Shown: positions 38,701-56,763, counted from the first letter of the stretch. The stretch is DNA of 64,000 nucleotides from Chloroflexota bacterium (GCA_024434115.1 QMIT01000003.1:157282-221281), one strand, 5' to 3'. Made by a program: numbers and translations. Notes: generated by a model from the sequence alone, not told the origin.

Positions 38701-41700
38701 CATCACGGGTCGTGGCATAGAGCTTATATGTTCCCCCACGCGGCGGCACGTATTCCACTTGACCCTTGCCCTCGGCATCCAACGTTACGGAACCGCTGGC
38801 GACTTCGACCTCTTCCAAATCCCATGTCCATGCCATGCGTCCGTCAGTATCTTTTTCCAACACACTCGTCCAGCGGCGCTCGACAATGCGGTAATCTATC
38901 ACCTGATTCGGTACGGCTTGGCTGTCCCAATCGACTGCGATCAAATTAAAGCGCGATGTTTTGCCAGCCTCACTCAAATAGCTATCTGGCGCGACTCCCA
39001 CATAAACCTTGCCTTGATGCACCACCACTCGCACACGTCCGGAGACGGGTTGATTACTTTCATCGGTGACGGTGGCCTCAATCGTATAGACTTGGCTGCC
39101 GGGGTGATTAGCGGCTCCGGCGGGTAGGCGGATAACAAAACGGCCTTCTGCATCGGTCACACCTTCGCCTTCCGATACTTTTTCGGCCCACACCCCCGAG
39201 GTCGTCTCGATATAGTTCTCGGTATCAAGGCGGTCATAGTCAAAATCTTGGAACGTCCAGCGTCCACGTCCCTGATAGTTAAAGTAATAGTCTTGGCCCA
39301 GTGCTACCCATTTAATCTGGGCGTTGCTGACCGCGCCCCCAAAAAAGTATCGGGCATCAATGGTCACATCTACCATCTCGCCCATCAACACTTCACTGGC
39401 TGCGGGGGTCGCTTGGACTTCATATTCCGGCGCGTGATACTCCGCGACATTAAAGGTTAAACCCGGCAGATTCCAATAGTACCCCGTGTAGCGGTTGTAA
39501 TATTCCTGATAGCTTGGCAGCGCAACCGCAATACGATAGTTGCCAAGACTGGCCTCGTCATCCAATTTGAATTCGCCAGAAAATGTGCCCTGCGGATTAA
39601 CCTCAATGCGCTCCTCGTAGATTTTCTGATTTGACGCATCATAAATTTCGATGGGGACAGTTCGGTGTCCCGGCATCACACTGTACAAAACATCGTCTTG
39701 TTTACGTAGGATGCCCCGGAAATAGACGGTCTGACCGGGGCGATAAACCGGACGATCACTGTAGAGATACAGACGTTGATTACTCTGTTGGTAATCCATC
39801 TCGACATTAAAATCGCCGGGTTGGATGCCGTAGATGAGACGGTTTGAGACGAAGCCGAAATGTTCAGGCGTCTGTACTACTGCGTAGAGCGTGCCGTAAG
39901 TATCCAGTTTGGGTAGATCAACGATCACAAGGCCGTTTTCATCGGTGCGCCCAAAAGCGACCACACTGAACTTGTCGTCATAAAATTTCACCAGCAAATT
40001 GGGTTCGGGATTCCCCGTTTGCATGTTTGTAACCCATGCAAGGGCTTCATGTTGGCTGTACTTAAACGTGATATTGACGGTTGCCACAACCATCACATGG
40101 GCATTAGCTGGATAACCGCGTTTATTGGATTGAGGCGAGTTGACGTAGAGCAGATACGCCCCCGGTTCAAGGGCTTTATATTCACCGTTTTCAATCAAGG
40201 GCACATCGGAAAGGGGTTCGACAAAATACGCGGATAGGCTGCCTTCTGGAATCCAGCCTTCGGTCTCATCTTCAAAGTTCTTGACCATCCACCACAAATA
40301 CCCCTCGGCACATATCGGGCCGTCTTGCACCCAGAAGGTTGTGCCAGCGGCATATTGGGTCACGGTTTCGCTGCCAAAACTGGCCTCAGCATGAATGGGC
40401 AACGGGCGAGGGTCATCGTCTGTCACACGTGCCTCAATATCCACACTCAAGCGTCGGGCCGCCACTCCCTGACAGGCGAAGTCCTCCAGACCACGATCTA
40501 CTTCTTCGGGTGAAATCAAAACCATCCGGTCACGCGATACATTCAGGGGTGAGGCCACCGGAACTTGCCATGAACGCAACCGTTGGTTGGCACGATTATC
40601 CCGGTCAGGTTGGCTATTGCTACGTGCCACCCCTGCCAGCGAGGGTAAATCCAACCGATAAAGCTGTAATTCAATGGTATCAATGTTGCGATGTGAGACA
40701 AACAAGCGTGTTGTGGGGTCATACGCATTGTAGACTGCCATCATACCGGGGACATTCAGTCTGAGAGATGGCTCATAGGCCCGCGTCGCAAAATTGATTT
40801 CGGCGGATGTAGTGATTTCATTGCCATAAATATCACGCATCCCCGGTTCTAGGGTAATGGCGTAATTGACATTGGGCAGGCTTCGGAAAATCACAAAATA
40901 GGCATTCCGCCATTCTTCATAATACCCGCCGATTTCCCCTTCCGGGGCAGGGTCTATCTTAATCTTATCCGCGATGCTGTCGGCGTCCATCGGGGCATTA
41001 AAGAAGATACTGAAACTGCCACCGGGGTCAACATTACGTTCTCCATCGGCGGGATACGTCCGATAGTAATCAGGATAGGGCACGGTGCGTAAGGGCCGCA
41101 AATAGTCATTATTCAGTTCCGCACCCGTCATAGATCGCAGAATGGCCTCATCACCAACCAGCAAATAAATCGAGTCGAGTTCAAGGGTATCAAGCGTGCG
41201 CAGTCGAACCGTCCGACGATCCATTGACCACGAATATCCCATGCGCACTCTGTCCCCATCCCAAGACTCGATATACAGGCCATTTTGTGTAACAGGATTC
41301 ATGGGCTGGGTAAAGCTCAATTCGAGAATAGGTTTTAGGGGTATATCAAATGGGGCAAAAAGTTCTCGCTCGGCTATCAGGCGCTCAACGGCCTCGTCTT
41401 GTTCTTCGGTATGACGCACACGTGGGGCATTCAACACACGGGCATTGGCAAACGTGGGTTTAACAGTGGAAAAGCTAAACTGATAATCCTCTTCCAATAC
41501 GGCGTCGGTGGGGGTTTTAAGTCCGGCATCAATCGTAATGGTATAGGTCGTTCCACCAATAAATCCCAGTTCAGGCTTAAAGGTGTAGATAGAGGTATTG
41601 AGCCACTCGCCTGTCCCAGTCGTTTCTGGTTCGATGTGTACCGGGTTAACGAGATCGGCCTGATACCCAATACTGGTCAGGGGCACAACCGGACGGTTAA

Positions 41701-42193
41701 AGATCACTGTGACGACGGTATCGGTGGAAACATTGGTAGACCCGTTTCCCGGCAGGACTTCCGATATTTGCAGAGAATTCGTGGTAAATAAATGGAGCCG
41801 ATAGGCATCCTCCATTGGGACATCTTGTGTATCCTCGGCAAATACACTGAAGATCACATCGCTGTCGGTTGGATACCCTTCGAGCGGTGGGGAAAACCTG
41901 AGAATACGTCCCCCATCCACCCATTCCCACACGCCGCCTTCTATAGCGGGGTCAACGCTAAAGGTGCCGCCGCTCTCCATATTCATGGGACGGTCAAAGG
42001 TAAACTCAACTGAACGTTGCAGACCTAGTTCTTCGCCATTTTCCGGCGATGTTTCAATAATCTTTGGTGTTGTATTTCCGGCTTGATTGGGTGGAGCGGC
42101 CTGTGGAGAATTCGGTCTAATAAGGGCAAAAATAACGGTACAGATTATCAGTGCCAATGGCAGAGATACCAAAACACGCTTGCGCTTCAGCAT
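35771..42193 (-). CDS. alpha-2-macroglobulin family protein with thioester motif (2140 aa)
   Basis: CIEQ thioester site in YPHQCIEQTVSRFLPN. A2M domain DFVDTPLWEPSVVTDENGQAQVSITLPDNLTTWHIDARAI. HSDGGWGWFPG helical-toroid block. N-terminal TM anchor from ATG 42193. Confidence 0.9.
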   Translation of the reverse strand: MLKRKRVLVSLPLALIICTVIFALIRPNSPQAAPPNQAGNTTPKIIETSPENGEELGLQRSVEFTFDRPMNMESGGTFSVDPAIEGGVWEWVDGGRILRFSPPLEGYPTDSDVIFSVFAEDTQDVPMEDAYRLHLFTTNSLQISEVLPGNGSTNVSTDTVVTVIFNRPVVPLTSIGYQADLVNPVHIEPETTGTGEWLNTSIYTFKPELGFIGGTTYTITIDAGLKTPTDAVLEEDYQFSFSTVKPTFANARVLNAPRVRHTEEQDEAVERLIAERELFAPFDIPLKPILELSFTQPMNPVTQNGLYIESWDGDRVRMGYSWSMDRRTVRLRTLDTLELDSIYLLVGDEAILRSMTGAELNNDYLRPLRTVPYPDYYRTYPADGERNVDPGGSFSIFFNAPMDADSIADKIKIDPAPEGEIGGYYEEWRNAYFVIFRSLPNVNYAITLEPGMRDIYGNEITTSAEINFATRAYEPSLRLNVPGMMAVYNAYDPTTRLFVSHRNIDTIELQLYRLDLPSLAGVARSNSQPDRDNRANQRLRSWQVPVASPLNVSRDRMVLISPEEVDRGLEDFACQGVAARRLSVDIEARVTDDDPRPLPIHAEASFGSETVTQYAAGTTFWVQDGPICAEGYLWWMVKNFEDETEGWIPEGSLSAYFVEPLSDVPLIENGEYKALEPGAYLLYVNSPQSNKRGYPANAHVMVVATVNITFKYSQHEALAWVTNMQTGNPEPNLLVKFYDDKFSVVAFGRTDENGLVIVDLPKLDTYGTLYAVVQTPEHFGFVSNRLIYGIQPGDFNVEMDYQQSNQRLYLYSDRPVYRPGQTVYFRGILRKQDDVLYSVMPGHRTVPIEIYDASNQKIYEERIEVNPQGTFSGEFKLDDEASLGNYRIAVALPSYQEYYNRYTGYYWNLPGLTFNVAEYHAPEYEVQATPAASEVLMGEMVDVTIDARYFFGGAVSNAQIKWVALGQDYYFNYQGRGRWTFQDFDYDRLDTENYIETTSGVWAEKVSEGEGVTDAEGRFVIRLPAGAANHPGSQVYTIEATVTDESNQPVSGRVRVVVHQGKVYVGVAPDSYLSEAGKTSRFNLIAVDWDSQAVPNQVIDYRIVERRWTSVLEKDTDGRMAWTWDLEEVEVASGSVTLDAEGKGQVEYVPPRGGTYKLYATTRDDAGNEILSSGFMWVSSPEYVSWRQRNDNRITLIADADTYRPGDTAQILIPSPFQGETLALVTVERDSFLHTEVIHMTTNSYVYQLPIQDLYAPNIYVSVMLVKGIDEHTTYAQFRFGMIPLTVDTERLVMDVEVTPVMPEGVETVGPGDTVTLDVKTHDWAGNPVSAEVGIGVTDLSVLGLMSPNSPPLLEYFYSRRGLGIMTASTLTISADDYVQYVTNGRKGGGGGGGGYPGIIEIRQDFVDTPLWEPSVVTDENGQAQVSITLPDNLTTWHIDARAITTGADGPMLVGQSTADFVSTKPLLIRPVTPRFFVVGDELSIGAIVNNNTRQEQTVQVELIGTGFNVLNDVALIQTVTIPAQGRQRVDWPIVVLDVSDIDATFTVRNEDGSYTDGSKPLLGQGDERLLPVYRYVAHETVGTAGVLDGPDARRVTETIELPEQADTERGSLRIRLDHTLAGPMLDGLNYLQNYPHQCIEQTVSRFLPNIMTMRALAELNQSNPELKQNLNQQVILGLQRLYALQHSDGGWGWFPGDASNPLTTAYALIGLSEARNSGFAAVDTSVIERAGDFLYGYIAQQEGSGGLDSLQNWQLNQRAFILYALNRSAYASGLDSATYAARLTLMYEQRHRLNLDAQAFLMMSMMANDPNDPRLETLKSDFMSAATFAGSASATGIHWEDRPDYYNWTTDTRTTALVLMALAHYDVTNDLLPGAVRWLMTARQADAWETTQETAWSVMALTDWMLLTRELEANYAFGVDLNGEALLPEDTQVTPETVRESQRLRVEIEELLWDEANQVVITHGDGPGNLYYTLHLTTFLDVPGIEPASRGISIERQYYLADDPARQPITSAKVGDEVVVMLTITALRSLNYVVIEDPIPAGAEAVDPHLLTTSIVGQRPHLEIADRADWGWWYFSHTELRDEKVVLYATYLGPGTYTYVYRLRLGVPGQFNVIPATGQEFYFPEVYGRSSGMLFTVEP

Positions 42194-42405
42194 TTGAAAT
42201 CTCCCCTCGTCAAAACTACTTTTCACGAGGTTATAACATGGGGCTGATGCTTCTGTTGAACGCGCAGGCCACGTCTGTTCAATTGCTACCCCATGCCCGT
42301 CTTCCAAAAGGCTGACAAATAGCTGACGTGGTTAATTTACGCTAGGCGGTCATTGAATAAATTGTTTCAGGCGGAAAAACTGAAGAGGGTTCTTTTCTGC
42401 CGATC

Positions 42406-43812
42406 TTATTCGCTTAATTTTGTGTTTGCCTCATTTATCACCTCAATCAAATCAAGATTTTGGCCTTGCTGAATGATTTGCATGTACTGGTCACCGCCGA
42501 GCACCACTTCCAATTCTCGGCAAATAGAATCAAATAAGCGACGATTGAGATGGAAGGCATACCGATGCAGAACGCCAGTCCATCGTGCTGCTTGTTCATA
42601 TTCTTGACCGTGCCAGAAAAAATGAACCACGATAAGCAGCGTTTTTGCCAAATAGGGTTCAATCTTAAGCTGAAGAGCAAGTTCAATGGCCTCCAAAATG
42701 GCTTGACGGGCTGGTTCATACCGATTTTGCAGAAGGTCTAAGTAGGCCATATACCCTCGCGCGAGGCAGACATAGTAAGGGGTCTTTCTTAGGTGGGCCA
42801 ATTCAAGGGCGTCATCATAACACTTGACTGCTGCCTCAAAGTTACCGAGGTGGGTATAAATAAGGCCCAGATCAATCATCCCACTCACCACCAAGTTTTT
42901 CATATTGATCGAGTCGGCAACTTGGATACCCTCTTGATAATGGCTAATGGCAGAATCCAGCTTATCCAGTTCGACTTCACACATCGCCAAACTAAGCAAG
43001 GCGGCGGGCAGCATTCGCATAAACCCAACATTACGGCATATTTGCACAGACCGTTCGGCTTGCTGCTCCGCCGTGACAAAATCTTGCAGGGAGACAAGGC
43101 TGTTGCTAAGGGTGAGTAGCGCGACGCTCAACTCTCCCTCACGGCCTGTTCCCTCTACGATTGCCAAATATTTGGCAAAATAATCGTATGCCAACTGATA
43201 GTCGCCGCGAAAATGTGCCACTCGGCCAATCCCCTGATAAACACGACCAATCTCGGCGGTTGCTTGGCATTTTTCAAATAGAACGAGCGCTCTATTTAGC
43301 AAATCTTCCGATTCATCGAACTTGCCTAGTTGTTGGGCAACTGATGCCAATGTATAGTAAGCTCGCCCTATACTTAAGGCATCTTTGGCCCGTTGACCTA
43401 AAATCAATAGCTGGTTGGCAAGCTGGGTGGCTTGTTCCGCGCGAGCCGAATAAAAATGGGCCTGTGCAAGATGATGCAATATAGTACACTGAGCCTCAGC
43501 ATTTCCGACCAGAATCGCCGCATCAAGTGCCTGTTGCAGCCAAGTTACCCGCTCGGATGGCGTTTGGCGTACCCGCAAAATATCAATTCCCGCAATAGAA
43601 AATCCCACACATAATTGGGCTTTGTCTAGCTCATCCGCTGCGCTAACTGACCATGCTTGCCATTGGCGGATTTGACTCCAGTCCTGTTCGATATGGTTAT
43701 ACCAATAGGTGCGGTTACCATGCCCCCGCCGAAAGGCTGTATTTGCCTGTTGCAGCCGCGTCACATAATGTTGAGCCAACCGATATTGAAGCGTGCCAAC
43801 AGAAGATGCCAT
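42406..43812 (-). CDS. tetratricopeptide-repeat protein (the TPR sensor part of an AfsR-like STAND regulator, encoded separately)
   Basis: 468 aa of degenerate TPR units (e.g. GRVYQGIGRVAHFRGDYQLAYDYFAKYLAI). The ATG shares one nucleotide with the upstream stop codon (TAATG). Confidence 0.85.
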   Translation of the reverse strand: MASSVGTLQYRLAQHYVTRLQQANTAFRRGHGNRTYWYNHIEQDWSQIRQWQAWSVSAADELDKAQLCVGFSIAGIDILRVRQTPSERVTWLQQALDAAILVGNAEAQCTILHHLAQAHFYSARAEQATQLANQLLILGQRAKDALSIGRAYYTLASVAQQLGKFDESEDLLNRALVLFEKCQATAEIGRVYQGIGRVAHFRGDYQLAYDYFAKYLAIVEGTGREGELSVALLTLSNSLVSLQDFVTAEQQAERSVQICRNVGFMRMLPAALLSLAMCEVELDKLDSAISHYQEGIQVADSINMKNLVVSGMIDLGLIYTHLGNFEAAVKCYDDALELAHLRKTPYYVCLARGYMAYLDLLQNRYEPARQAILEAIELALQLKIEPYLAKTLLIVVHFFWHGQEYEQAARWTGVLHRYAFHLNRRLFDSICRELEVVLGGDQYMQIIQQGQNLDLIEVINEANTKLSE

Positions 43813-45635
43813 TAGCTCATCACCTCATCTAAAAGCGAGCGTGCATGTAAGACCAAGAGGGCGTGCATTTGGAAGCGCCCCCCACCAACGGGTTCTAAGA
43901 GGCCACGATTGACCAGTAACCTTGCAATCGGTTTGGGGTCGTCTACCTCCCATACGACGGCCATCGCGGGCAAGTCAAATGTCGCAGGTTTGGCAACAAA
44001 TAATCCCAAATAAGCGAAATACTGGCGAGTTAAGGCATCAAGCGAATCCGTGCTACGTTTGAGAAGCGCGGTAATCGTCAGCGAGGTATCGGACTTGTTT
44101 CCCAACATATCACTAGGCGCTTGAGCGGTCAGTAAACTGGCCCCCTCTCTTAAATCCGCCAATAACTCACTCACACCCCATCCCAATCGAGCCTCGCTAT
44201 GCAACAAACGACCTGCCACATGAATCGCCAAAGGTAGGCCTTCGAGATCACGTACCAATTGTGTGGCTTCATCAAATTGATTGGCAACGGTTTCGGGGGT
44301 GAATTTTGCTAATAGTTCCAGTGCTGCCTGTTCCGTCAAGACCGGCAGGCGATAAATATCATTAGCGGTCGGAGCAAGAGCAGTTGCTACGTCATTCAAA
44401 CGACTGGTCATGACCAATGCGCAATTCTTTCCCCCAACTCGAAACGGTTGGGCATGATCCGCCTGCCACACATCATCCACAATCAGCAGCATTCGTTTGT
44501 CCCGCAGCACCGCCGTCAATTGGGCACTGATTTCTTCGACGGTGCGGGCTTGACCGGGTTCATTTAAACGCAATGCCTCCGCCCAAACTCCGATTTCACT
44601 CGCAATACTAGGATTTTCGCCTAACGAAGCCCATAAGACACCATCGGGATAATACTGGCTGAGTTCCAAATCGTGGGCCAGTGTTGCCACAAGGGTGCTT
44701 TTGCCAACACCCGGCCAGCCTTGAATAACGGTGATTGGACGTGCTTCCGGACTGCCCACGCCAAGCCGCTGCTTAATCGCATGGAGCGCGGCTTCACGTC
44801 CCACCAAAAGCGATGGGAGGGGCGGCATCACACCTGAAATAGGTGGGCTAATCAAATCGGTGGACGACACAAACGTAGGAGTACCCTGTTGAATAGCCTC
44901 AAAAAGTCGGGTGGTCTCGCTTTCGGGTGGAGTAGCAAGTTCACTATCCAAAATTTCCACACACTGGCGATACTGGCGCAGTGCTTCTGACCGCTGACCA
45001 TTCGCAGCATACAAACGCATCAAGTGGCGATGGGCAGGCTCGTGCAGGGTATCAATCTCCAACCACTGGATGGCATGACGAATCGCTTGTTCATACTGGT
45101 CCAAGTCAGCATAATAGTGAGCTAGGCGGCGTTGGACATCGGCATATTCGCGGCGCAACCATTCGCGTTGGGCCAACTGCCAGTTCTCAAATTCCAAATC
45201 ATCCGGCAGATTAAATCCGATCAAAAAATCATCGCTATAGAGTGTTGCAGCTTGTTGATAAAAATCTACACAATCTTTACAAATGCTATCCGAGCCGTGC
45301 GGATGGGCGCTATTCGCTGCGAGTAGTTTTTGGAAAGCGATCACATCAACCCATACTACTTCTCGTTTGAGACCAATGGTCATACGATCCGCTTGAATCC
45401 ATTCGATATCCATCACTTTGGTCAGTGCTCGTAGGGCACTTCGCAAAGCTGACCGCGCATGATCCTCATCTTGATCCGGCCACAATAGACTGGCGATCAC
45501 CTCGCGGCTCTGCATTTGTTCAGATAATGCGAGATAGGCGATAAGGGCCACGGCCTTGCGGCGTTCAACTTTGACGGCTGTGCCTTGAAATTCGATGCGT
45601 GGGGTTCCTAACAAATACACCCGCAAGCCACTCAT
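43812..45635 (-). CDS. SARP-family regulator (OmpR-type wHTH + BTAD) fused to an NB-ARC/STAND ATPase (AfsR-like)
   Basis: LLGTPRIEFQGTAVKVERRKAVALIAYLAL wHTH. BTAD helices (HEPAHRHLMRLYAANGQRSEALRQYRQC). Walker A GWPGVGKSTL and Walker B LLIVDDVW. Confidence 0.85.
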   Translation of the reverse strand: MSGLRVYLLGTPRIEFQGTAVKVERRKAVALIAYLALSEQMQSREVIASLLWPDQDEDHARSALRSALRALTKVMDIEWIQADRMTIGLKREVVWVDVIAFQKLLAANSAHPHGSDSICKDCVDFYQQAATLYSDDFLIGFNLPDDLEFENWQLAQREWLRREYADVQRRLAHYYADLDQYEQAIRHAIQWLEIDTLHEPAHRHLMRLYAANGQRSEALRQYRQCVEILDSELATPPESETTRLFEAIQQGTPTFVSSTDLISPPISGVMPPLPSLLVGREAALHAIKQRLGVGSPEARPITVIQGWPGVGKSTLVATLAHDLELSQYYPDGVLWASLGENPSIASEIGVWAEALRLNEPGQARTVEEISAQLTAVLRDKRMLLIVDDVWQADHAQPFRVGGKNCALVMTSRLNDVATALAPTANDIYRLPVLTEQAALELLAKFTPETVANQFDEATQLVRDLEGLPLAIHVAGRLLHSEARLGWGVSELLADLREGASLLTAQAPSDMLGNKSDTSLTITALLKRSTDSLDALTRQYFAYLGLFVAKPATFDLPAMAVVWEVDDPKPIARLLVNRGLLEPVGGGRFQMHALLVLHARSLLDEVMS

Positions 45636-45891: not shown

Positions 45892-48447
45892 ATGCGAATA
45901 TCAGCAAATGAGTATCGTACAGTGCGGACATCTGTCATCTTATTGGCAGTGGTCGCCATCTTGTTTTTTCTGATTGGCTGGCCGGCCCATTCTCAGGGGC
46001 AGTCAAGTCAACGGATTGAGTCGGATAATGCGTTGGTCAGTCGTGAAGGCAATTGGTCATCACAAACAACGGCAGCAGCCAGCGACGGAACCTATCTCTA
46101 TTCGAGCGGGGCCGAAGGGGATGTGCTGGAATTGGAGTTTGTTGGCACCACACTGGAAGTCATCTATATCGCTGGGCCAGCCTTAGGCACATTGGCCCTA
46201 GAGGTGGACGGCACAGTGCTACGAACAGTCATCACGAGAACTGACCAAACCGCGTATGGACAAAGCACCATTATCAACTATCTGAGCAATGAACCCCATA
46301 TCCTCCGAGTCTATGCCCAAGAGGGCGGCATCGTGGCGGTGGATGCTTTTGTCATCTCCACCGAAGAAGCCACCGATACAACCACCAGTGGCGACGAGGA
46401 AGGTGGGATATTTGCCAGCACCTGCACTCCGGTGAATGCCATCCATCGCGTCAGTCTCGACTATCACAATCAGCAGGTATCCGGCGCATTTACCAACAGT
46501 GACTCGGCTCTATCGGAAGATGGACGTTTTGTCGCCTTCGAATCTGCCTCGTCGGAATTGGTAGCAGGCGATACCAATGGCCTGATTGATATTTTTGTGT
46601 ATGACCGCCAAACCTGCCAAATTAGCCGAGTGTCCGTTGCGAGTGATGGTACGGAGGCAACCTTGTCATCCGTCAATCCTGATATTTCAGCCGATGGACG
46701 TTATGTCGTATTTGAGACAAGTGCTGCGTTGGTTAGCGCAGATTCAAATGGCGTCAGCGACATTTACATGTATGACCGCGACACCTTTACGATCACCCGT
46801 ATCTCGCGGGGCAACATTGCTCTTCCCCAAGCGAATGGGGCTTCCCGTAACGCCTCGATTTCTGGCGATGGGACACGCATTGCCTTCGAGTCTACCGCCA
46901 CCAATCTAGTGACGGGTGATACGAATGGCGAATCAGATATTTTCCTGCGTGATCTCACGGCAGGTACGACAACCCGAGTCTCGCTGACCAATGCCGGAAA
47001 TGAAGCGACAGGGGGTGGCTCGTTTATGCCAGATATTGCCTCAGCGGGCGGTCATGTCGCCTTTGAATCCGAGGCGACCAATCTAGTAGCGAATGATAAC
47101 AATGGTGAACGTGATATTTTTGCGCGGGCACTGACGGCGGGGACTACTATTCGCGTCTCCATACCATCCGGCGGAGGCCAAGCCAACGGGAATTCATGGG
47201 ACCCGGCGATCTCGTCCAATGGTACGATTATCGCCTTTGAATCCGATGCGACGAACATGGTTGCAGGCGATACCAATAATTTCCGGGATGTGTTTGTGCG
47301 CACCACCAGCGGCGCCCCCACCACCTCATTGGTTTCGGCCTCGACTGCGGGAACACTCGGCGCTCTTCCATCAGCGAACCCTGCGATTGCGAATGGTGGA
47401 CGTCAAATCGTCTTTGAATCCGATTCCCCCTTAGCCACTGAAGACACTAATGGTTGGACGGACATCTACGTGCGTGACCGCGTTGCCAATACGACCACCC
47501 TCGTTTCGATAGCACGGGATGGAACGTTGGGGGATGACAATACCAGCTATCCGGCCATTTCGGGCAATGGTAATTATGTCAGCTTTGAATCGGAAGCCAC
47601 CAATCTGATTTCAGGGGATACGAACGATGACCCGGATATTTATGTTGCACCGCGTTTCCCCACACCTGCTGATAATCTCGCAGTGTTCAGTCCCAATTTC
47701 CAGATTGTTGGTCTCGTAGATGGCTTGGGCGATCCACCTGCTGCCGATGACTACACCTTCTATTCAGCTTATGCACCAACAACGGGCGGGCTGTGGGTCA
47801 TGGGTGACTGGGACAGCGATGGCCTAGAAACTCCCGGCGTCTATAGTAATGGCGCGTTTTTCTTCACCAATGAACCGGGTGAGACGGAGGATTGGGAACT
47901 ACTCTGGATCGGTGTGACCGGGCCGCCTGTAACCGGACGGTTCGATGCAGCCCTTTCCAATGACTGTATTGGAGTCATTGATGGGGCAGATTTTCCGCCC
48001 TACGGAATGGCCTTTGTCCTCTACTACACCTGTGACCTATCGGGCAATCTCCTGCCCGCCATCGGGTATCAATGGCTGAGTGTCTTGTTACCCGATTCGG
48101 CAGGTTTTACAGGCACACATCAGTTCTCCGCAGGCGATTTTGATGGGGACGGGGTGGCAACGATTGCGTGTCGGCGCGGGACTTCGATCACGTGGACTAA
48201 CGATGCAGCCACAACAGGCACTGGAGGCTTCCCGTTTGCGCAATATATCGGCGCACCGGGTATCAGTGATGAAGGCGCTTTTGTAGCGGGCGATTGGGAT
48301 GGCGACACCATCGCCTCATTCGGGCTGTACTATCAAGATGGGGAATTCTACTATCGCCACGATCTCGATTGGAACTCAGGGGTATATTTCAATCAATCGC
48401 TTGGTGTGCCGTTGGCAGGTGTGACACAGGTCTCAGCTTGGCGATAG
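45892..48447 (+). CDS. secreted protein: N-terminal beta-sandwich, about nine PD40/TolB-like propeller repeats, C-terminal FG-GAP/VCBS-like repeats
   Basis: Signal/TM after ATG 45892 (GGGAG RBS). Repeated unit S.DGR.VAFES.A.NLV.GDTNG..DIF. C-terminal GDWDSDG, GDFDGDG and GDWDGDT motifs. Confidence 0.8.
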   Translation: MRISANEYRTVRTSVILLAVVAILFFLIGWPAHSQGQSSQRIESDNALVSREGNWSSQTTAAASDGTYLYSSGAEGDVLELEFVGTTLEVIYIAGPALGTLALEVDGTVLRTVITRTDQTAYGQSTIINYLSNEPHILRVYAQEGGIVAVDAFVISTEEATDTTTSGDEEGGIFASTCTPVNAIHRVSLDYHNQQVSGAFTNSDSALSEDGRFVAFESASSELVAGDTNGLIDIFVYDRQTCQISRVSVASDGTEATLSSVNPDISADGRYVVFETSAALVSADSNGVSDIYMYDRDTFTITRISRGNIALPQANGASRNASISGDGTRIAFESTATNLVTGDTNGESDIFLRDLTAGTTTRVSLTNAGNEATGGGSFMPDIASAGGHVAFESEATNLVANDNNGERDIFARALTAGTTIRVSIPSGGGQANGNSWDPAISSNGTIIAFESDATNMVAGDTNNFRDVFVRTTSGAPTTSLVSASTAGTLGALPSANPAIANGGRQIVFESDSPLATEDTNGWTDIYVRDRVANTTTLVSIARDGTLGDDNTSYPAISGNGNYVSFESEATNLISGDTNDDPDIYVAPRFPTPADNLAVFSPNFQIVGLVDGLGDPPAADDYTFYSAYAPTTGGLWVMGDWDSDGLETPGVYSNGAFFFTNEPGETEDWELLWIGVTGPPVTGRFDAALSNDCIGVIDGADFPPYGMAFVLYYTCDLSGNLLPAIGYQWLSVLLPDSAGFTGTHQFSAGDFDGDGVATIACRRGTSITWTNDAATTGTGGFPFAQYIGAPGISDEGAFVAGDWDGDTIASFGLYYQDGEFYYRHDLDWNSGVYFNQSLGVPLAGVTQVSAWR

Positions 48448-48474
48448 GATATAACATCCGTTGATTTCTACAAA

Positions 48475-48505
48475 GGTCGGGTTACAAAGCCCGGCCTTTT
48501 TGTTT
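48475..48505 (+). terminator. intrinsic terminator of the PD40/FG-GAP gene
   Basis: GGTCGGG (48475-48481) pairs with CCCGGCC (48490-48496), including one G-U pair, followed by TTTTTGTTT. Confidence 0.65.
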
Positions 48506-48518
48506 AGGCCCTATACGG

Positions 48519-48552
48519 TTGTCACGTTTCTGTCGCGCAGTTTTTTTATACT
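48519..48552 (+). promoter_or_regulatory. second copy of the SARP-box promoter module (P2)
   Basis: TTGTCAC (48519-48525), 4 nt, CTGTCGC (48530-48536), GCAG, 6 nt, TATACT (48547-48552). 23 of 27 nt are identical to P1 across CTGTCGCGCAG-N6-TATACTGACC. Confidence 0.45.
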
Positions 48553-48558
48553 GACCTC

Positions 48559-48640
48559 TGTCTCGATCATCTTGCACTTGTATTGTCTCAACCCTTCTCA
48601 TCTGCTCCCATTTTTGCAGGGGTTGAGACATACCTTTTTT
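48559..48640 (+). ncRNA. candidate small RNA (about 80 nt) between promoter P2 and an intrinsic terminator
   Basis: No ATG or RBS-preceded ORF. 11-bp stem TGTCTCAACCC (48584-48594) with GGGTTGAGACA (48620-48630), plus an inner CTGC/GCAG stem, followed by TACC and TTTTTT (48635-48640). Confidence 0.3.
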
Positions 48641-48645
48641 GAGAA

Positions 48646-49527
48646 TTAGCCCAATTCCCTATTCCGGGTTTGGCCCATTAGATGGATATAACCATCTTCC
48701 AGACTTGGCTCAGTGGATATGGCGTTCGGAAAGGCCCCTGCATCCCCGATCACCCGATACTGCGTCCCTTGCGCCAACTGAAGTGTGGAAACCACATTTA
48801 GACCGTGATTCGGGCGTTCTCCATCCGTCACAATGTTCCAGACCTGACCGCGTGTTTTTTGGATTAACTCATTGGGCGCACCGCGAAACAACACAGTGCC
48901 GTTATACATGATGGCTAAATCACGGCAACTTTGGCTAATGTCTTCAATGATATGGGTCGAAAGGATCACCGTCGCATTTTCCGCTAGTTCAGAAAACAGG
49001 TTTCGCAGCCGTACTCGTTCTTCGGGGTCAAGCCCTGCGGTTGGCTCGTCCACAATCATAAGCCGGGGGTTGCCAATGAGTGCCTGAGCGATGCCGATGC
49101 GCCGTTTCATACCGCCGGAATAAGTCTTTAGCCTGCGTTCTGCTACCTCGGTCAGATGTACTTTTTCTAAGGCTTCCTGTACTTGCTGTTTGCGCTGCTG
49201 ACGATTGGTAACACCCTTCAAAATAGCGACATAATCTAAAAACTCGGCCCCAGTTAGATGTGGATAGAGGCCAAGTTCTTGTGGCAGATAGCCCAATATA
49301 GCTTTGGCGGCTTGTTTACCTTTTAGGGTGTGCATATCGTGTCCATTGACTTCGACCCGACCCGCCGTCCAATGCAGCAATCCCGCGATAATTCGCATCA
49401 GGCTGGTTTTGCCCGCGCCATTTGGCCCAACCAAACCAAACATCCCAGTCCCGATTTCAAGTGAAATATCATTCAGTGCCGTGACATCGCCTTTATAGAT
49501 TTTGGTGAGGTGTTCAATCTTAATCAT
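48646..49527 (-). CDS. ABC transporter ATP-binding protein (ABC-2/DrrA-like)
   Basis: Walker A GPNGAGKTS, signature YSGGMKRR, Walker B LMIVDEPTAGLD. Confidence 0.9.
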   Translation of the reverse strand: MIKIEHLTKIYKGDVTALNDISLEIGTGMFGLVGPNGAGKTSLMRIIAGLLHWTAGRVEVNGHDMHTLKGKQAAKAILGYLPQELGLYPHLTGAEFLDYVAILKGVTNRQQRKQQVQEALEKVHLTEVAERRLKTYSGGMKRRIGIAQALIGNPRLMIVDEPTAGLDPEERVRLRNLFSELAENATVILSTHIIEDISQSCRDLAIMYNGTVLFRGAPNELIQKTRGQVWNIVTDGERPNHGLNVVSTLQLAQGTQYRVIGDAGAFPNAISTEPSLEDGYIHLMGQTRNRELG

Positions 49528-51171: not shown

Positions 51172-52013
51172 GCCGTTGTCCTTAATTCCCGGTCAGATTT
51201 TTCAAGGAATAGAAATGTGGTCAATAGGGCCAATACTGCCGCTATCAAGAGAAAGGGGCGGGTACTTTCGTCACGCAGGCCGGGCAGTGACAGTGCATAA
51301 ACAAGCGTATGGTCAGGGGTTGCCTGGGTGAGAAAAACGTGCAGACTCCACATAAGCAGGGACACGGCGATGCTGAATGCTGTGCTGCGTAAAACGACGC
51401 TCATCAAAAAAGCAACCGACGACAAGAAGGTCATGGGCAAAAACCAAGCCAGAATCAGTGGGCCAAGCGAGATTTCAGCCCTTGCAATGGCTAAGATAAC
51501 ACTGCCACCTAAAGTCATGATGAGATTGAAGCTAAAAATCAGCATCAAACGAGCTAACAAAATCCGAAGGATACCTGTTGGGGTGGCGTCCTCAATTTCA
51601 AACTGGATTTCGTATTCGGCATCATAAAGCAGACCCACCCCCACTGCCGCCATAATCGGTGCGAGGATCACCAGCGGCGCAAAGGCATCAGTGTCTGGTT
51701 GATAGGCTACCAACGTGACAAAGGTGCCGATCAAGATGACCAGCGCGGAGGCTGCCCACAACTCCTTACGAATGATCCACAACTGGCCCTGCAAAATAAG
51801 CCACATCCAGCGCAGATTACGTCGTTGATTCCCACTAGTAGCCAATCCTTCAACTGAGAGCCGAGTGAGCAGTGCTTGAATTTCAGCATTGGACGTTGTC
51901 GGGTTAGGCCATTGTTTAAGGGCTTGGATAGGGCCTATGAGCGCATCTGCCGTACCATCCGAACCAGTATCCTCGACTAACATATCTCGCAAACGCTTAG
52001 GGTCGTCGGTCAT
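51168..52013 (-). CDS. membrane protein in the anti-sigma position (about 80-aa cytoplasmic N-terminus plus multiple TM helices)
   Basis: Starts 4 nt inside the ECF sigma gene. No zf-HC2 motif is visible, so the function is inferred from position only. Confidence 0.4.
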   Translation of the reverse strand: MTDDPKRLRDMLVEDTGSDGTADALIGPIQALKQWPNPTTSNAEIQALLTRLSVEGLATSGNQRRNLRWMWLILQGQLWIIRKELWAASALVILIGTFVTLVAYQPDTDAFAPLVILAPIMAAVGVGLLYDAEYEIQFEIEDATPTGILRILLARLMLIFSFNLIMTLGGSVILAIARAEISLGPLILAWFLPMTFLSSVAFLMSVVLRSTAFSIAVSLLMWSLHVFLTQATPDHTLVYALSLPGLRDESTRPFLLIAAVLALLTTFLFLEKSDRELRTTA

Positions 52014-52558
52014 GTTGATTCCTCCATTAACTCACGCAGCCGCCGGAGGCCTATACTTAAGCGCGATTTGACCGTGCCTTCTGGAATTTTTAGGCTTTCC
52101 GCGATCTGGGCCAGTGGCATTTCCTCGTAATAGCGCAAGAGAATGACTTCGCGCTGATGTAAGGGCAGTTTGGCAAGGGCTTGGATGACCTGCTGGGTTT
52201 CCTCATAGGTGGTCAACTGCGTTTCTGGCAATGGCTCGATATCCCTTAGGTTATGCCAGTCCATTTCCGACGCAGTAATCGTATGGCGCGTGTCGGCCTG
52301 TTCAAAATGCTGCCGGACGAGATTGGTGGCTATCGCATAAAGCCATGCTTTAAAAGGGCGGGGGTATTGATATTGATGGATGTTCCGCAGTGCCCGAAGA
52401 AACGTTTCTTGTGCCATATCCTCACTCAATAACAAATTCCCATTGGTCATCCGGTAAAGATAGCCTTTCAATGGGCTATAATGCCGCTCCACCAACAGTG
52501 CCAAATTGGGAATACACCCTTGTTGAATTCCTTGGGCCAGTGTTTCGTCGGTTTGCAA
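52010..52558 (-). CDS. RNA polymerase ECF-type sigma-70 factor
   Basis: Region 2 (SEDMAQETFLRALRNIHQY) and region 4 (REVILLRYYEEMPLAQIAESLKIPEGTVKSRL). TTG start is preceded by AGGAG. Confidence 0.9.
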   Translation of the reverse strand: MQTDETLAQGIQQGCIPNLALLVERHYSPLKGYLYRMTNGNLLLSEDMAQETFLRALRNIHQYQYPRPFKAWLYAIATNLVRQHFEQADTRHTITASEMDWHNLRDIEPLPETQLTTYEETQQVIQALAKLPLHQREVILLRYYEEMPLAQIAESLKIPEGTVKSRLSIGLRRLRELMEEST

Positions 52559-52808
52559 TCCCGATTCACTCCTATGCAGCGGCCTATCAACACCCTAATA
52601 TCGGATATGCCTCAAAAGGTTCACGTTTCCATATCGCATAAGCTAAATCATACGAGTTTAACAATGTACATTCGATATTCGCAGGCAATGAGCGATTTGA
52701 AGAAGCACCATCCCAAGATAAAAATACGAGCATAACTGTGCCCGTGTTTTTAAGGATGTTTCTGATGTCGAGCGGGGTTAGCGGTTTTCAGCGATTATGG
52801 GCACTGCT

Positions 52809-55355
52809 TTATAAGCGCGGATCTACGGGTTCGCTTTCAAGGGCAAGTACCCCAAAAACACACTCATGTACACGGCGTAGTGGTTCTTTTTGAACAAACC
52901 GTTCCAGCGACTCAATACTCAGGGCAAATTCGCGGGCGGCCAAAGATCGTTTACCCTTCAGACCTCGACTACGCAAACGGACTATCTGTTCGGGGGCGGT
53001 ATACTCTGGCCCATAAATAATTCGCAGATATTCACGGCCTCGCACTTTCATAGCAGGTTGAAGGATGCCATAACGACCCTTCACGATGAAATCCAGCGGT
53101 TTGACGACCATACCCTCACCACCTTTTTGGGTCATCTGCTCCCACCAGCGTACCCCTTCGGCTTGACTATCGGGATTCGTGACATCCACGATTTTATAGG
53201 CGGTTGGATACAACACGGTTTCGCCAACCTGATGTAGTTTGCCAATCATTTCCATATGCCACACATGCGATTTGTCGGCATGGGTCGTCCGTTCACTTGC
53301 GAGCAGATGAAAAGGGGCAAGTTTCAAATCATCAATCGAAGTCACCTCCCAGCAATAGCGTCGGTAGGCCTCAATATAGTGATTGACCATTGCGGCACGT
53401 GGCTGGAAACGGCCCAACAATTCAGAGGTAGCGGGCAATCGGGCGGCAGTCATTTCGAGAGCAGCGATGGTTTCACGCATCGCATTTCCTCCTGCTGACC
53501 CTACTGCCGCGTACTGCCGCTGTAATAATTCCTGCGCTTTGGCTGACCAAGGCATCAATTCGCAGTCAAGTGCCAGCCAATCCGTGTTGAGGTCATCCCA
53601 CAACCCCGCTTCATCAATGGCATCGTGTATCCGACCCAAAAATTCGGTTTCCAATGCCCGGTTATCAAAGAAACGGCGTCCGGTGCGGGTGTAACATACT
53701 CCGAAACCCTCCCCAATTACACCAAAACGCCGACGGGCAGCATCTTCATCTCGACAAACGATGACGACTGCCCGTGACCCCATATGTTTTTCTTCGCAGA
53801 TCACCTGTGGCACCCCATTATCACGGTAATACGCAAAAGCCTCTAACGGATGTTCCAATAGATCAGGAAATTGCGTCGTTTCCGTTGGCGACATAGTAGG
53901 CGGCAAATAGATCAGCCATTTGGGATTGACGGCAAAACGGCTCATAACTTCCAGTGCCGCAATCGCATTTTCTTCTCGAATGGTGATATGTTTCATCAAA
54001 CGAGTATTGATAAGGCGCTTGCCAATGACATCCTCAATATCCAGCACATCATCGTACTGCTGTTGGGAAGTCAAAGCCGGAGCGCTTTCAGCTAGGAAAG
54101 GTCGCACGGGTTCGGAATAGGTGTGCTGTGCAGGAACCGACACCACTTCTTTTTCAGGATAGCGTAAGGCTGATAATGCCCCACCAAATACGCAGCCCGT
54201 GTCAATATTGATGGTTCGATTTAACCATTCCGCTTGGGGTACAGGAGTATGACCATAGACGACGGTGGCCGAGCCGCGATACTCAGCCGCCCAATTGTGA
54301 CGCACGGGTAAGCCAAACTCGTCAGTCTCACCAGTCGTCTCGCCATACAGGGCAAATTCGCGGACAGTCCCGGAAGCGCGTCCGGCGTAATTTTCTTTCA
54401 TGCCCGCATGGGCCACCACCAAGCGACCCCCATCCAGCACATAATGGCTGACGAGGCCCTCGATAAAATCCGCCACCTGCTTTTTGAATTCAGGGGTCTC
54501 GTTTTCCAGCTGTGCCAGCGATTCAGCCAGACCATGTTTGATTTGCACGTCTCGTCCGCGCAATTTTCGCATGAGTTTGATGTCATGATTGCCGGGGATA
54601 CAGATGGCCGTACCCCTTTCGACCATATCCATAACCAATCGCAAAACATCGGGGATTTTTGGCCCACGATCTACCAAGTCGCCCAAAAAGATAGCTTTGC
54701 GACCATCGGGCGGGGTAACGTGTGTGCCATTGACAGCATAGCCCATGTTTTCTAGCAGCGTCACCAATTCATCAAAGCAGCCATGCACGTCGCCAATGAT
54801 GTCGAAGGGGCCATGTTCATGCTTCAGATTATTGTGTAAGGGTTGGCGGGTAATCTGCACATCGGCGATTTCTTCCTCCGATTTCAGCACATAGACCTGC
54901 CGAAAACCCTCCTTTTCCAATAGGCGCAGGGAGCGTTTTAGCTCTTGGCGCTGACGTTTGATGACCTGCGACCCAAAGTTTCGATCCGCCCGTTTCTGGT
55001 TGCGTTCAATACAGATGCGCTCTGGCACATCCAAAACAATCGCTACCAGCAAGGCATGATGTTCACGGGCTAATTTAATCAGCGGCTTACGAGCCTCGGG
55101 CTGCACGCTGGTCGCATCAATGACCGTCAATTTCATATTGGCAAGGCGTTTGCCTGCGATGAAATGCACCACATCAAACGCATCTTTGGTGGCATCTTGG
55201 CTGTTTTCGTCATCCGAGACCAACCCCCGGCAAAAATCCGAGGAGATGATCTCAGTCGGCAAAAAGTGTGTCCGTGCAAAAGTAGATTTGCCGCTGCCAG
55301 AGACGCCAATCAATACAACGAGTGAGAATTCAGGAAGGGTGATATTCAAGGTCAT
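52809..55355 (-). CDS. pnkp: polynucleotide kinase-phosphatase/ligase (bacterial Pnkp RNA repair enzyme)
   Basis: Three modules: P-loop kinase GVSGSGKST; calcineurin-type phosphoesterase GDVHGC, GDLVDRGP, GNHD, GHTP; C-terminal nucleotidyltransferase with CEEKHMGSR lysine motif. ATG 55355 lies 1 nt after the hen1 stop. Confidence 0.9.
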   Translation of the reverse strand: MTLNITLPEFSLVVLIGVSGSGKSTFARTHFLPTEIISSDFCRGLVSDDENSQDATKDAFDVVHFIAGKRLANMKLTVIDATSVQPEARKPLIKLAREHHALLVAIVLDVPERICIERNQKRADRNFGSQVIKRQRQELKRSLRLLEKEGFRQVYVLKSEEEIADVQITRQPLHNNLKHEHGPFDIIGDVHGCFDELVTLLENMGYAVNGTHVTPPDGRKAIFLGDLVDRGPKIPDVLRLVMDMVERGTAICIPGNHDIKLMRKLRGRDVQIKHGLAESLAQLENETPEFKKQVADFIEGLVSHYVLDGGRLVVAHAGMKENYAGRASGTVREFALYGETTGETDEFGLPVRHNWAAEYRGSATVVYGHTPVPQAEWLNRTINIDTGCVFGGALSALRYPEKEVVSVPAQHTYSEPVRPFLAESAPALTSQQQYDDVLDIEDVIGKRLINTRLMKHITIREENAIAALEVMSRFAVNPKWLIYLPPTMSPTETTQFPDLLEHPLEAFAYYRDNGVPQVICEEKHMGSRAVVIVCRDEDAARRRFGVIGEGFGVCYTRTGRRFFDNRALETEFLGRIHDAIDEAGLWDDLNTDWLALDCELMPWSAKAQELLQRQYAAVGSAGGNAMRETIAALEMTAARLPATSELLGRFQPRAAMVNHYIEAYRRYCWEVTSIDDLKLAPFHLLASERTTHADKSHVWHMEMIGKLHQVGETVLYPTAYKIVDVTNPDSQAEGVRWWEQMTQKGGEGMVVKPLDFIVKGRYGILQPAMKVRGREYLRIIYGPEYTAPEQIVRLRSRGLKGKRSLAAREFALSIESLERFVQKEPLRRVHECVFGVLALESEPVDPRL

Positions 55356-55356
55356 T

Positions 55357-56763
55357 TCACACTTTTTCTTCTGCCAATATCTCAAAAATCGCCATTTGGC
55401 TGGGTGGGCCAACCTGCAAATCCTCTGTCCCAATGGGTAAAAACCGCACGCGATAGCCAAAACGTTCTGCTATACCAGTGGCCCATGTCTGAAATTCGGC
55501 ACGTGTCCATTCAAAGCGGTGGTCGCGGTGGCGGAATTTTCCGGCGGGGAGGGTCTCCATCAACACGTTGTATTCGACATTTGGCGTTGTAATCACCACC
55601 ATTGTGGGGTGGGCAAATTCAAATAACACCCGCTCAAATGCCGCCAAACGGGGAGGGTCGAGATGTTCAATGACTTCGACCACCGCCGCCGCATCAAAGC
55701 CCTTTAGCCGCGCATCCCGATACATCAATGATCCCTGTGCGATTTGAATGCGTTCCCGCTGTTTAGGTGGCAAACGATCTAACCGTAGTTTGTCGCTGGC
55801 GATTTCCAACGCATGAATGGAAACATCTATGCCTAAAATGGAGGTAAACTGTGGTTCTTGCAGCAGCATGGATAACAGCCGCCCCTCACCGCAACCCAAA
55901 TCGAGAATACGCTGTGCCCCGCTGTTTTTGAGAACCGATAACACCGCCCCCAATCGCTGTTGATGCAGACTCACCCGTTCCTCAATTTTTGCTTCTTCCG
56001 CGTTGTGTTCATCGCTTTCTTCGTCAATGCGAGGACTATCTTCAACCAATCGGGCGAGTGCCTCGCGTTTGAGACTGTATTGGTGCTTCAAATAGCGGGC
56101 CGTGATTAATTCTTTAGCCGGATGCGCGGCTAACCACCCTTCGCCATGTCGCAGCAGTTTTTCCACTTCATCGCTGCCGACATAGTAATGTTTCTCGTCA
56201 TCCAGCACCGGAATCAGCACATAAAGATGGGAAAGCAGGTCAGTCAAACGAACGGTATGGCACAATGTCACCGTGTAATAAGCGCTTTCGCCCCATGCTG
56301 GAAAAGTGTCGTCTAGCAGATAGTGTTCAATCGTGAGGGTATATCCTAGTGGTTCAAACAGCTTTCGCAGCATAGCCTCACCCCCTCGACTGGGCAGGGA
56401 TGTAATTTTTGCTTCAAGCGGAATCGCGGTTTGGGCTAATTCTGGGCGTGTTTTGCAAATGCCTGATAATGCCGTTCCGTACACCTGCGAAATGGCGACA
56501 CTCATAAATGACGATGCCACATACGGGCGGTCATTGACATAAGGTTCAAGCGCAAAGGTACTCATCCCGCGTCCGCGTACCAACCCTACCGGATTGATGT
56601 CCAGTAGCAGAGCAGCAGTGCATCGTTCCGGTGTCGCTTCCGGATAAAACACATGGGCCTGCCCAAAATTCAGTTCAAACGATTGGACACGATCCGGATG
56701 TTTGTATAACAAATAGCCGAGATCAGTTGCGGGTGAGAGGGTTGTGGTAATGGTTAACAGCAT
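55357..56763 (-). CDS. hen1: 3'-terminal RNA ribose 2'-O-methyltransferase Hen1 (bacterial type)
   Basis: N-terminal domain MLLTITTTLSPATDLGYLLYKHPDRVQSF. SAM motif ILDLGCGEGRLL. Metal-site blocks VVEVIEHLD and HRDHRFEW. Confidence 0.9.
   Translation of the reverse strand: MLLTITTTLSPATDLGYLLYKHPDRVQSFELNFGQAHVFYPEATPERCTAALLLDINPVGLVRGRGMSTFALEPYVNDRPYVASSFMSVAISQVYGTALSGICKTRPELAQTAIPLEAKITSLPSRGGEAMLRKLFEPLGYTLTIEHYLLDDTFPAWGESAYYTVTLCHTVRLTDLLSHLYVLIPVLDDEKHYYVGSDEVEKLLRHGEGWLAAHPAKELITARYLKHQYSLKREALARLVEDSPRIDEESDEHNAEEAKIEERVSLHQQRLGAVLSVLKNSGAQRILDLGCGEGRLLSMLLQEPQFTSILGIDVSIHALEIASDKLRLDRLPPKQRERIQIAQGSLMYRDARLKGFDAAAVVEVIEHLDPPRLAAFERVLFEFAHPTMVVITTPNVEYNVLMETLPAGKFRHRDHRFEWTRAEFQTWATGIAERFGYRVRFLPIGTEDLQVGPPSQMAIFEILAEEKV

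Follow-up and report, generated by a model that had tools for sequence, protein, structure and literature searches.

Leader- and riboswitch-derived RNAs that act on their own are known from Listeria (SreA/SreB and Rli55) and Enterococcus (EutX), small RNAs (sRNAs) also arise from gene remnants, and to our knowledge no sRNA has been studied in Chloroflexota. Here we consider an intergenic unit at positions 48519-48640 of a 64-kb window (the whole stretch of DNA analysed; GCA_024434115.1, QMIT01000003.1:157282-221281) from a bioreactor-sludge bacterium of the Anaerolineae (Chloroflexota), as yet uncultured, where P2, a second copy of the activator-type promoter P1, is followed by a hairpin leader and then by no gene. 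An earlier note, made from the sequence of the window, had described the unit as an orphan copy of P1, of SARP type, driving a terminator-bounded sRNA. Two kinds of described promoter come closest to P2. SARP activators combine an OmpR-type DNA-binding domain with BTAD, NOD and TPR domains, and their promoters carry direct repeats 11 or 22 bp apart that replace the -35 element, with the 3' repeat 8 bp from the -10 (PMC10936776). The Pho box of Escherichia coli, the site of PhoB, reads CTGTCAT-A(AT)A(TA)-CTGT(CA)A(CT) (PMC3465305, PMC4415409).

As judged by alignment with its relatives, the P2 unit is the terminator-promoter-leader cassette of PD40-propeller paralogs with the coding gene absent, not a duplicate of P1. 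We believe, with moderate confidence, that this cassette (48472-48645) has been kept for an approximately 80-nucleotide (nt) non-coding leader RNA or for the antisense read-through of that RNA. As with the leader-derived RNAs, a 5' leader carrying a hairpin and U-tract can end as a short stable RNA, here kept without a coding gene. Unlike the SreA/SreB-type RNAs, it has no known ligand or target and no Rfam match, the RNA itself is only predicted, and its origin lies in the loss of a tandem paralog rather than in premature termination before an intact gene.

A propeller-paralog cassette without its gene

P2 reads TTGTCAC (48519-48525), GTTT, CTGTCGC (48530-48536), GCAG, a T-run and TATACTGACC (48547-48556). 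The string CTGTCGCGCAG-N6-TATACTGACC is present at two sites of the window and no more (45671 and 48530), with 21 of 21 specified bases identical, and not once in 100 shuffles; two of the six N6 spacer bases also agree, giving 23 of 27, and the earlier note was right to see in P2 a second activator-type copy. Its statement that P2 repeats the P1 module with identical internal spacing holds for the 11-bp heptamer period and for the 10 bp between the last heptamer and TATACT, but P1 has three heptamers (45649, 45660, 45671) and P2 has two (48519, 48530). P1 (45649-45697, plus strand) consists of CTGTCAC, CTGTCAC and CTGTCGC at that period, 10 bp, the -10 TATACT and GACC. This promoter serves the gene for an 851-aa PD40 beta-propeller protein (45892-48447, plus strand; Pfam PD40, with an N-terminal membrane anchor or signal sequence), and the P1 region aligns at about 99% identity between the window and DTUCFX7, one of the relatives compared below. 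The remaining structural claims of the note also stand. P2 begins after the propeller gene's own intrinsic terminator (48472-48505, plus strand), a canonical 12-bp stem (48472-48499) with a 4-nt loop and a T tail; the 11-bp stem of 48584-48594 with 48620-48630 and the T6 at 48635-48640 are present; no coding gene lies 3' of P2 in the window genome; 48557-48645 contains no ATG and no open reading frame (ORF) preceded by a ribosome-binding site; and the next gene, for an ABC-transporter ATPase whose ORF ends at 48646 on the minus strand, is convergent, with P2 aimed into the ECF/ABC operon.

The idea of an orphan copy of P1 did not survive comparison of the leaders. The P2 leader matches the P1 leader at only z = 1.0, similarity ending at GACC, whereas it aligns over its full length (z = 5.4) with the leaders of propeller paralogs, genes 2 and 4 of the relative locus L009. 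Tandem arrays of such paralogs occur in MAG_03 and in another Chloroflexi metagenome-assembled genome, and most of the paralogs have a heptamer promoter of their own (L009, L008, L006). The inter-paralog spacers of L009 follow the same order as 48472-48645 of the window, namely terminator, two heptamers, TATACTGACC, CTTGCAC leader, hairpin and C[CA]TTTTT, and they end in AGGAGC and a start codon. The propeller-gene terminator is thus the first element of an inter-paralog cassette, and its AGGTCGGGTT..CCCGGCCT hairpin and T-run also stand 5' of the L009 promoter copies. At the other end, 48631-48645 (TACC, T6 and GAGAA, plus strand) aligns with C[CA]TTTTT[CA]AGGAGC-GTG/ATG of L009 and with TTTTTAGGGATT-GTG of MAG_03, and comprises a U-rich tract and what remains of the missing gene's Shine-Dalgarno region, with the gene-less junction immediately 3' of it.

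Orthologous loci are available from DTUCFX7 (L045, the same species as L004), CFX10 (L039/L041) and MAG_03 (L036/L028). The window, CFX10 and DTUCFX7 have one common gene-less junction, ..CCTTTTT(T)GAGAA/TTAGCCC.., differing only in T6 versus T5, and in these three genomes the leader is followed by no ribosome-binding site, start codon or ORF, only by GAGAA before the ATPase stop codon. In MAG_03 (L028) the same P2, leader, hairpin and T5 run into AGGGATT-GTG and some 75 frameshifted C-terminal codons of one paralog. Beyond this remnant come a ribosome-binding site and a complete PD40 gene of 719 aa, which has 48% identity to the window propeller and is convergent with the ATPase gene. A 106,882-nt contig from run X23 follows the window to 48639, carries 2427 extra bases and rejoins the window at 48654; because it falls on the MAG_03 stretch (L028) at about 88% identity across the paralog gene, X23 represents a fifth lineage, with the gene-bearing arrangement. 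Its remnant has a 46-nt deletion relative to MAG_03 and many small indels. The remnant of MAG_03 itself (L028:6415-6615, minus strand) is a pseudogene in which the paralog start region is fused, with a frameshift, to the last 75 or so codons (..DTNGTDSFGLFYHNGKRFY..WR and the stop codon); with the further deletion in X23, it is evidence that the tandem array has suffered deletions repeatedly.

Conservation of the gene-less unit

The four species (window, CFX10, DTUCFX7 and MAG_03) are roughly equidistant, with pairwise four-fold-site divergence of 0.25-0.30 and 2:2 site patterns of 75/64/59, that is, a star-like tree. Over the 122-nt unit, by contrast with the approximately 35 differences expected at the four-fold rate, CFX10 differs from the window at 2 positions, DTUCFX7 at 9 and MAG_03 at 7 (binomial p = 5e-15, 4e-9 and 3e-11). 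Variable columns number 10 of 123 in the unit, 7 of 19 in the T tail and spacer to the left of heptamer 1 (48500-48518), 24 of 37 between the propeller stop codon and the terminator, and 124 of 628 in the propeller 3' coding sequence; the unit and its adjacent spacers (31 of 56) differ at a Fisher p of 1.9e-11. The non-conserved spacer between terminator and P2 (48506-48518, plus strand) serves as a local neutral reference, and conservation begins abruptly at heptamer 1.

Within the unit (all elements on the plus strand), the activator box TTGTCAC-GTTT-CTGTCGC (48519-48536, two heptamers 11 bp apart) varies at one of 18 columns, a C/T at the first base of heptamer 2. The -10 hexamer TATACT (48547-48552), 10 bp past heptamer 2 and followed by a conserved GACC, is invariant in the four species, as are the heptamer cores and both stem arms. 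The 5' segment of the leader (48553-48583), which holds the conserved CTTGCAC block and aligns with the leaders of L009 genes 2 and 4, varies at 3 of 31 columns, and the hairpin loop at 4 of 26.

The conserved block fits the functional unit to within a few bases, and its strength is the same whether or not a species has the gene; for that reason, a deletion allele that spread recently is a poor explanation, and the best reading of these alignments is that purifying selection acts on the gene-less unit. The earlier suggestion of a decayed promoter duplication is at odds with strong conservation in four species about 30% apart at four-fold sites, and the refuting case named in that note, a recent and non-conserved duplication of P1 without the hairpin elsewhere, does not hold, since both unit and hairpin are kept in all four; the sRNA and antisense proposals of the note stay plausible.

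The leader hairpin

The arms of the leader hairpin (48584-48630, plus strand), TGTCTCAACCC (48584-48594) and GGGTTGAGACA (48620-48630), are perfectly complementary over 11 bp, and TACC and T6 (48635-48640) follow the 3' arm. Additional GUAU/AUAC pairs extend the stem to 14-15 bp, within 1 nt of the U6, and the minimum free energy is -26.1 kcal/mol (z = -4.2). The arms enclose a 25-nt C-rich loop, whose conserved motif is CUGCUCCCA in the window, ..CCGCUCCCA.. in the other three P2-type species and CCGUCCCCC in L009. Folding the four P2 units together with two L009 leaders (RNAalifold) gives one stem at matching columns. The covariation check proposed in the earlier note came out in favour of the stem, with nine core pairs kept in 6 of 6 leaders and three pairs altered on both sides in a compensatory manner, although this covariation is drawn from two leader lineages only, because the paralog leaders of L166, L167, L168 and L008 lack the hairpin, having other promoters or GGTGAC-type boxes and short leaders.

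Because the same unit precedes propeller genes in MAG_03 and X23, the hairpin and U-run are, on this comparison, a conserved element of the 5' untranslated region (5' UTR) just 5' of the ribosome-binding site of paralog genes, and not simply an sRNA terminator. The proposal of a terminator-bounded unit is thus uncertain: the promoter module is intact and conserved and the hairpin with U6 folds well, but the loop is long and the element is read through in relatives. The P2 unit resembles an intrinsic terminator or attenuator in its GC-containing stem with U6 within 1 nt, and the position of the hairpin in gene-bearing relatives, between promoter and ribosome-binding site, is typical of attenuators. 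It departs from both in its 25-nt loop and in the L009 U-run, which lies 4-9 nt from the stem, and in place of an antiterminator fold the L009 leaders show a long-range helix over the ribosome-binding site. At gathering threshold, Rfam 15 passed only a tRNA in the window; when 48400-48720 was scanned permissively, the matches were weak, terminator-like and confined to 48443-48509, with none on the P2 unit.

Some further foldings touch the start of the missing gene. In the L009 leaders (L009:2400-2505 and 7974-8078) the 5' end (CUCACGAUCC) pairs with the Shine-Dalgarno and start region (GGAGCGUGA) around the conserved hairpin, and this long-range helix over the ribosome-binding site looks like a closed, translation-off conformation. 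A 6-bp remainder of the helix (UCUCGA:UUGAGA) persists in the gene-less window unit. Pairing between loop and Shine-Dalgarno sequence, as a pseudoknot or anti-Shine-Dalgarno, was sought by eye and rejected: UUCUC:GAGAA in the window does not pair in DTUCFX7 (UCCUC), and CUCCC:GGGA in MAG_03 comes to merely 4 bp. In Armatimonas leaders (L018:742-790, L023:133-190, L027 and L029 on the minus strand, and L040:4055-4100) a hairpin pairs the first transcribed bases (GCUGUCC) with AAGGACAGC just 5' of the ATG, placing the ribosome-binding site inside the stem, which suggests translational control.

Promoter class and candidate activator

Divergent from P1 lies the gene of a 607-aa AfsR-like SARP regulator (43812-45635, minus strand), with an N-terminal OmpR-type DNA-binding region, BTAD and NB-ARC/NOD. 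Pfam recognises BTAD (1.7e-20) and NB-ARC (1.9e-23), and its Trans_reg_C model gives no match to the protein; the best solved-structure match is S. coelicolor AfsR (8k60/8jke; E = 3e-21, residues 4-602, N-terminus aligned). The stop of the regulator gene overlaps, at 43812, the start of the gene for a 468-aa TPR protein (42406-43812, minus strand; Pfam TPR_12 at 1.4e-25, and TPR_MalT), which supplies, from a gene of its own, the TPR part of the split AfsR-like regulator. The split SARP-NB-ARC/TPR gene pair recurs in L004 and L006, and AfsR-like genes adjoin the promoter module in the window and at six further loci (L025, L006 with a motif variant, L011, L016, L017 and L023).

P1 and P2 share with Streptomyces AfsR-type SARP promoters, the afs box upstream of afsS among them, direct repeats spaced by one helical turn (11 bp) between the -35 position and the -10, and the BTAD-bearing regulator encoded next to P1 aligns with AfsR. 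Unlike in Streptomyces, the 3' repeat ends 10 bp from the -10 instead of 8 bp (elsewhere the gap is 10 bp at L009 and 10, 10, 11 and 9 bp in the copies of L006), the heptamer takes the form YTGTCRC, a gene of its own encodes the TPR part, and the host is an uncultured member of the Anaerolineae; the targets here are secreted PD40 propeller proteins instead of an antibiotic cluster, and binding is only predicted. At the same time, the heptamers and their 4-bp spacer (CTGTCAC-GATT-CTGTCAC; TTGTCAC-GTTT-CTGTCGC) are almost the same as those of the Pho box, which likewise lies 10 bp upstream of the -10. Such a resemblance is to be expected, because both regulator families, PhoB and the SARPs, bind DNA through the common OmpR/PhoB winged-helix fold. 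Unlike the Pho regulon, the locus has no pho genes downstream, and the recurrent neighbours are AfsR-like genes, not phoBR. The SARP-type label is a reasonable one, because repeats one helical turn apart replace the -35 element and the adjoining gene is AfsR-like, with two qualifications, the 10-bp gap and the almost perfect fit of the heptamers to a Pho box. Overall, an AfsR-like activator is favoured over PhoB, because the downstream genes are mostly non-pho, the neighbours are AfsR-like, and the strict motif is limited to P1 and P2 in CFX10 and DTUCFX7.

The module, two or three heptamers and a -10, precedes propeller paralogs and neighbouring genes in relatives, and TATACTGACC is common to P2, P1 and the L009 promoters. 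A pattern scan finds two copies in L009 and four in L006, where a fifth, upstream of the first propeller, was recognised by eye. Scanning 185,579 species genomes (GTDB) for TGTCAC-N5-TGTCRCGC-N8-TATACT returned 36 stretches (L010-L045), in which the genes 3' of the module mostly encode secreted, lipoprotein or large repeat proteins, not pho genes, and in which the CFX10 and DTUCFX7 genomes carry the strict motif at P1 and P2 only. Most of these stretches belong to Chloroflexota, Armatimonas, Bipolaricaulota or Fraserbacteria, and one genome often has several.

No third copy of the heptamer module was found within the window. A heptamer pair at 38619 (one mismatch) lies inside the alpha-2-macroglobulin coding region and is put down to chance, and a match at 52621, in the upstream region of the ECF operon, is weak (78% identity to the P2 reference copy) and falls where a GGAAAC-N17-CCGAT motif is read from the other strand. 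A metagenome scan for TATACTGACC-N{12,20}-CTTGCAC gave at least 120 stretches, and with upstream heptamers in none among the matches listed these too were set aside as chance. Other propeller paralogs and neighbour genes have the same architecture with different heptamers (GGTGACG, or TGTGAC/TGTAAT; L008:4690-4740 and 7480-7545, L168:2925-2965, L006:8181-8225, 8621-8665, 12680-12725 and 15487-15520), which suggests that regulator and box diverged together. The L006 box also stands 5' of genes for an 85-aa protein, a cytochrome P460/copper-binding protein and a hybrid histidine kinase.

A model for the P2 unit and its alternatives

In the model that we prefer, the AfsR-like SARP with its separate TPR partner would bind the heptamers in lieu of a -35 element and would fire P2 together with P1, recruiting RNA polymerase to TATACT. 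Transcription, for which we infer a start at about 48559-48560, would for the most part stop at the hairpin and U-tract near 48640, yielding the leader RNA of about 80 nt, and selection would keep either this RNA or the fraction that reads antisense into the 3' end of the ABC ATPase gene. A more specific version is tentative and, in our judgement, has the odds against it: after loss of the paralog, the AfsR-activated promoter and leader would have been co-opted as a stand-alone RNA gene whose product, about 80 nt with a C-rich loop, is made alongside the propeller protein, acting in trans or as an antisense regulator of the ECF-sigma/ABC operon.

RNA coverage of the unit was found in none of the public runs. 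Runs X1-X4, from bioreactor communities, carry the window organism at full identity. Metatranscriptomes X22/X29/X30 hold three short contigs across 18 kb; the contigs of X35/X36 are sparse and lie in paralog B of MAG_03 and in the ABC operon, with none on the leader; and X32/X34 have sparse contigs solely in the propeller gene of a DTUCFX7-like organism. Ordinary libraries and contigs would miss short RNAs. Runs X5, X7-X9, X23-X27, X31 and X33, although labelled RNA-Seq/FL-cDNA, give contigs of 55-195 kb whose depth is flat on both strands and across intergenic DNA; their behaviour is that of DNA, and they are unfit as expression evidence.

Several points weigh against the model of a retained leader RNA. 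No transcript of the P2 unit was seen, the organism being almost absent from the true metatranscriptomes, and RNAduplex against 53 start regions in the window gave no signal (best -45.9, shuffle mean -44.8). Because the hairpin lies inside the 5' UTR of expressed genes in relatives, it cannot stop every transcript, and how long the RNA would be is uncertain; the hairpin is at best a partial terminator or attenuator. Its 25-nt loop is atypical of intrinsic terminators, and a simple terminator scan did not call it, because that loop far exceeds 8 nt. Conservation could operate at the DNA level, through regulator binding, and not on RNA, and the enrichment of variable sites outside the named elements of the unit is not significant (p = 0.16). 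The star-like tree is compatible with a gene-less state that arose either by a single deletion or by recombination spread, and all genomes compared are metagenome assemblies.

The alternative that fares best makes antisense regulation the whole purpose of the unit: transcription from P2 past a leaky hairpin would run antisense through the ABC ATPase gene and the ECF-sigma operon, by transcriptional interference or RNA duplex formation, so that SARP activation dampens the operon. The unit abuts the convergent ATPase stop codon, relatives need read-through of the hairpin to express the downstream paralog, such that read-through is built in, and where the gene is present the paralog converges on the ABC operon as well, its 3' hairpin lacking a T-run. 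Nonetheless, we regard this as unlikely: it leaves the conservation of the loop and the 5' leader unexplained, and the extended stem of 14-15 bp with U6 should halt a good share of transcripts.

That same conservation of loop and leader bears on a DNA-level reading, in which P2 is a second site for an oligomerising AfsR-like regulator, either for cooperative binding or looping with P1 or for titration, while the hairpin and U-run merely shield the ABC operon from transcription and the RNA has no role. The NB-ARC/NOD domain and TPR partner are as in STAND-type oligomerising proteins, and the heptamers, the -10 and the stem arms are the most invariant parts of the unit; but 22 of 26 loop columns and 28 of 31 columns of the 5' leader are invariant too, which an insulating terminator would not need, and we hold the DNA-level reading to be quite improbable.

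We give similarly little credence to a functionless relic, left after deletion of the paralog and looking conserved only because a young deletion allele spread between species by recombination. The unit clearly descends from a gene-bearing cassette, a common junction in three species with a star-like tree fits horizontal spread, and the differences within the unit pair the window with CFX10 and DTUCFX7 with MAG_03. Yet neutral-looking sequence lies within a few bases on both sides, with 31 of 56 spacer columns variable on the left and ordinary coding divergence on the right, and because the conserved tract is bounded in this way, a relic requires a recombination tract that matches the functional unit exactly. 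Divergence in the unit is also 4-17x below the four-fold rate in every pair, and the true relic next door, the paralog remnant of MAG_03 and X23 with its 46-nt indel and many small ones, does decay at this very locus. That P1 was recently duplicated on the spot, or that the unit is a very small protein-coding gene, can be dismissed as extremely improbable: for all the 23 of 27 bases in common with P1, the resemblance ends at GACC with unrelated leaders (z = 1.0) and the unit predates the split of the four species, while the 25-codon TTG ORF (48572-48649) has no ribosome-binding site and is frameshifted in DTUCFX7 (+C, -T) and in strain variants (+T). Another candidate, a 90-aa ORF antisense to the ATPase gene (48639-48911), was rejected, being absent in CFX10.

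If the version with a co-opted stand-alone RNA gene is the true account, the unit would be a SARP-dependent sRNA observed soon after it arose from an mRNA leader. What is new here is a natural pair of states, with the gene (MAG_03, X23) and without it (window, CFX10, DTUCFX7), together with apparent selection on the gene-less state, and by comparing sister species one can test directly how a non-coding RNA, or antisense control, is born from an mRNA leader. A promoter and terminator that look orphaned can be what is left of a deleted paralog, and relatives are worth checking before an sRNA is called. In a wider context, AfsR-type activators with heptamer promoters resembling the Pho box appear to govern small local regulons that encode secreted proteins outside the actinomycetes, in Chloroflexota and, by motif and gene neighbourhood, also in Armatimonadota, Bipolaricaulota and Fraserbacteria; this SARP-type design looks like a widespread and so far undescribed one.

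Neighbouring genes

The ABC-transporter ATPase gene (48646-49527, minus strand; Pfam ABC_tran, 2.3e-34), into which any transcript running on from P2 would extend antisense, is the last gene of an ECF sigma/ABC-2 operon that extends to 52558. The operon includes the gene for the ECF sigma factor (52010-52558, minus strand; Sigma70_r2 and r4), upstream of which GGAAAC-N17-CCGAT (52595-52640, minus strand) is a candidate ECF-type promoter, probably for autoregulation of the sigma/ABC-2 operon. Adjoining the operon is a gene for Pnkp, a polynucleotide kinase-phosphatase/ligase (52809-55460, minus strand); in the relative L004 (16930-20914), Pnkp is followed by a Hen1 methyltransferase gene, the two forming a bacterial RNA-repair pair.

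Directly downstream of the TPR gene lies a giant bacterial alpha-2-macroglobulin gene (35771-42307, minus strand; about 2140-2178 aa), which in L004 is called as two ORFs. The long inter-paralog spacers of MAG_03 contain recurring GC-rich hairpins, for example CCTCACCCCCC..GGCGAGGGGGAG and GCCCTTCCCTTTGTTAGGGGAAGGGTTGGGG (sites at L009:2093-2340, L009:7673-7915, and L168:2738-2840 and 5548-5800), which may constitute an intergenic repeat family.

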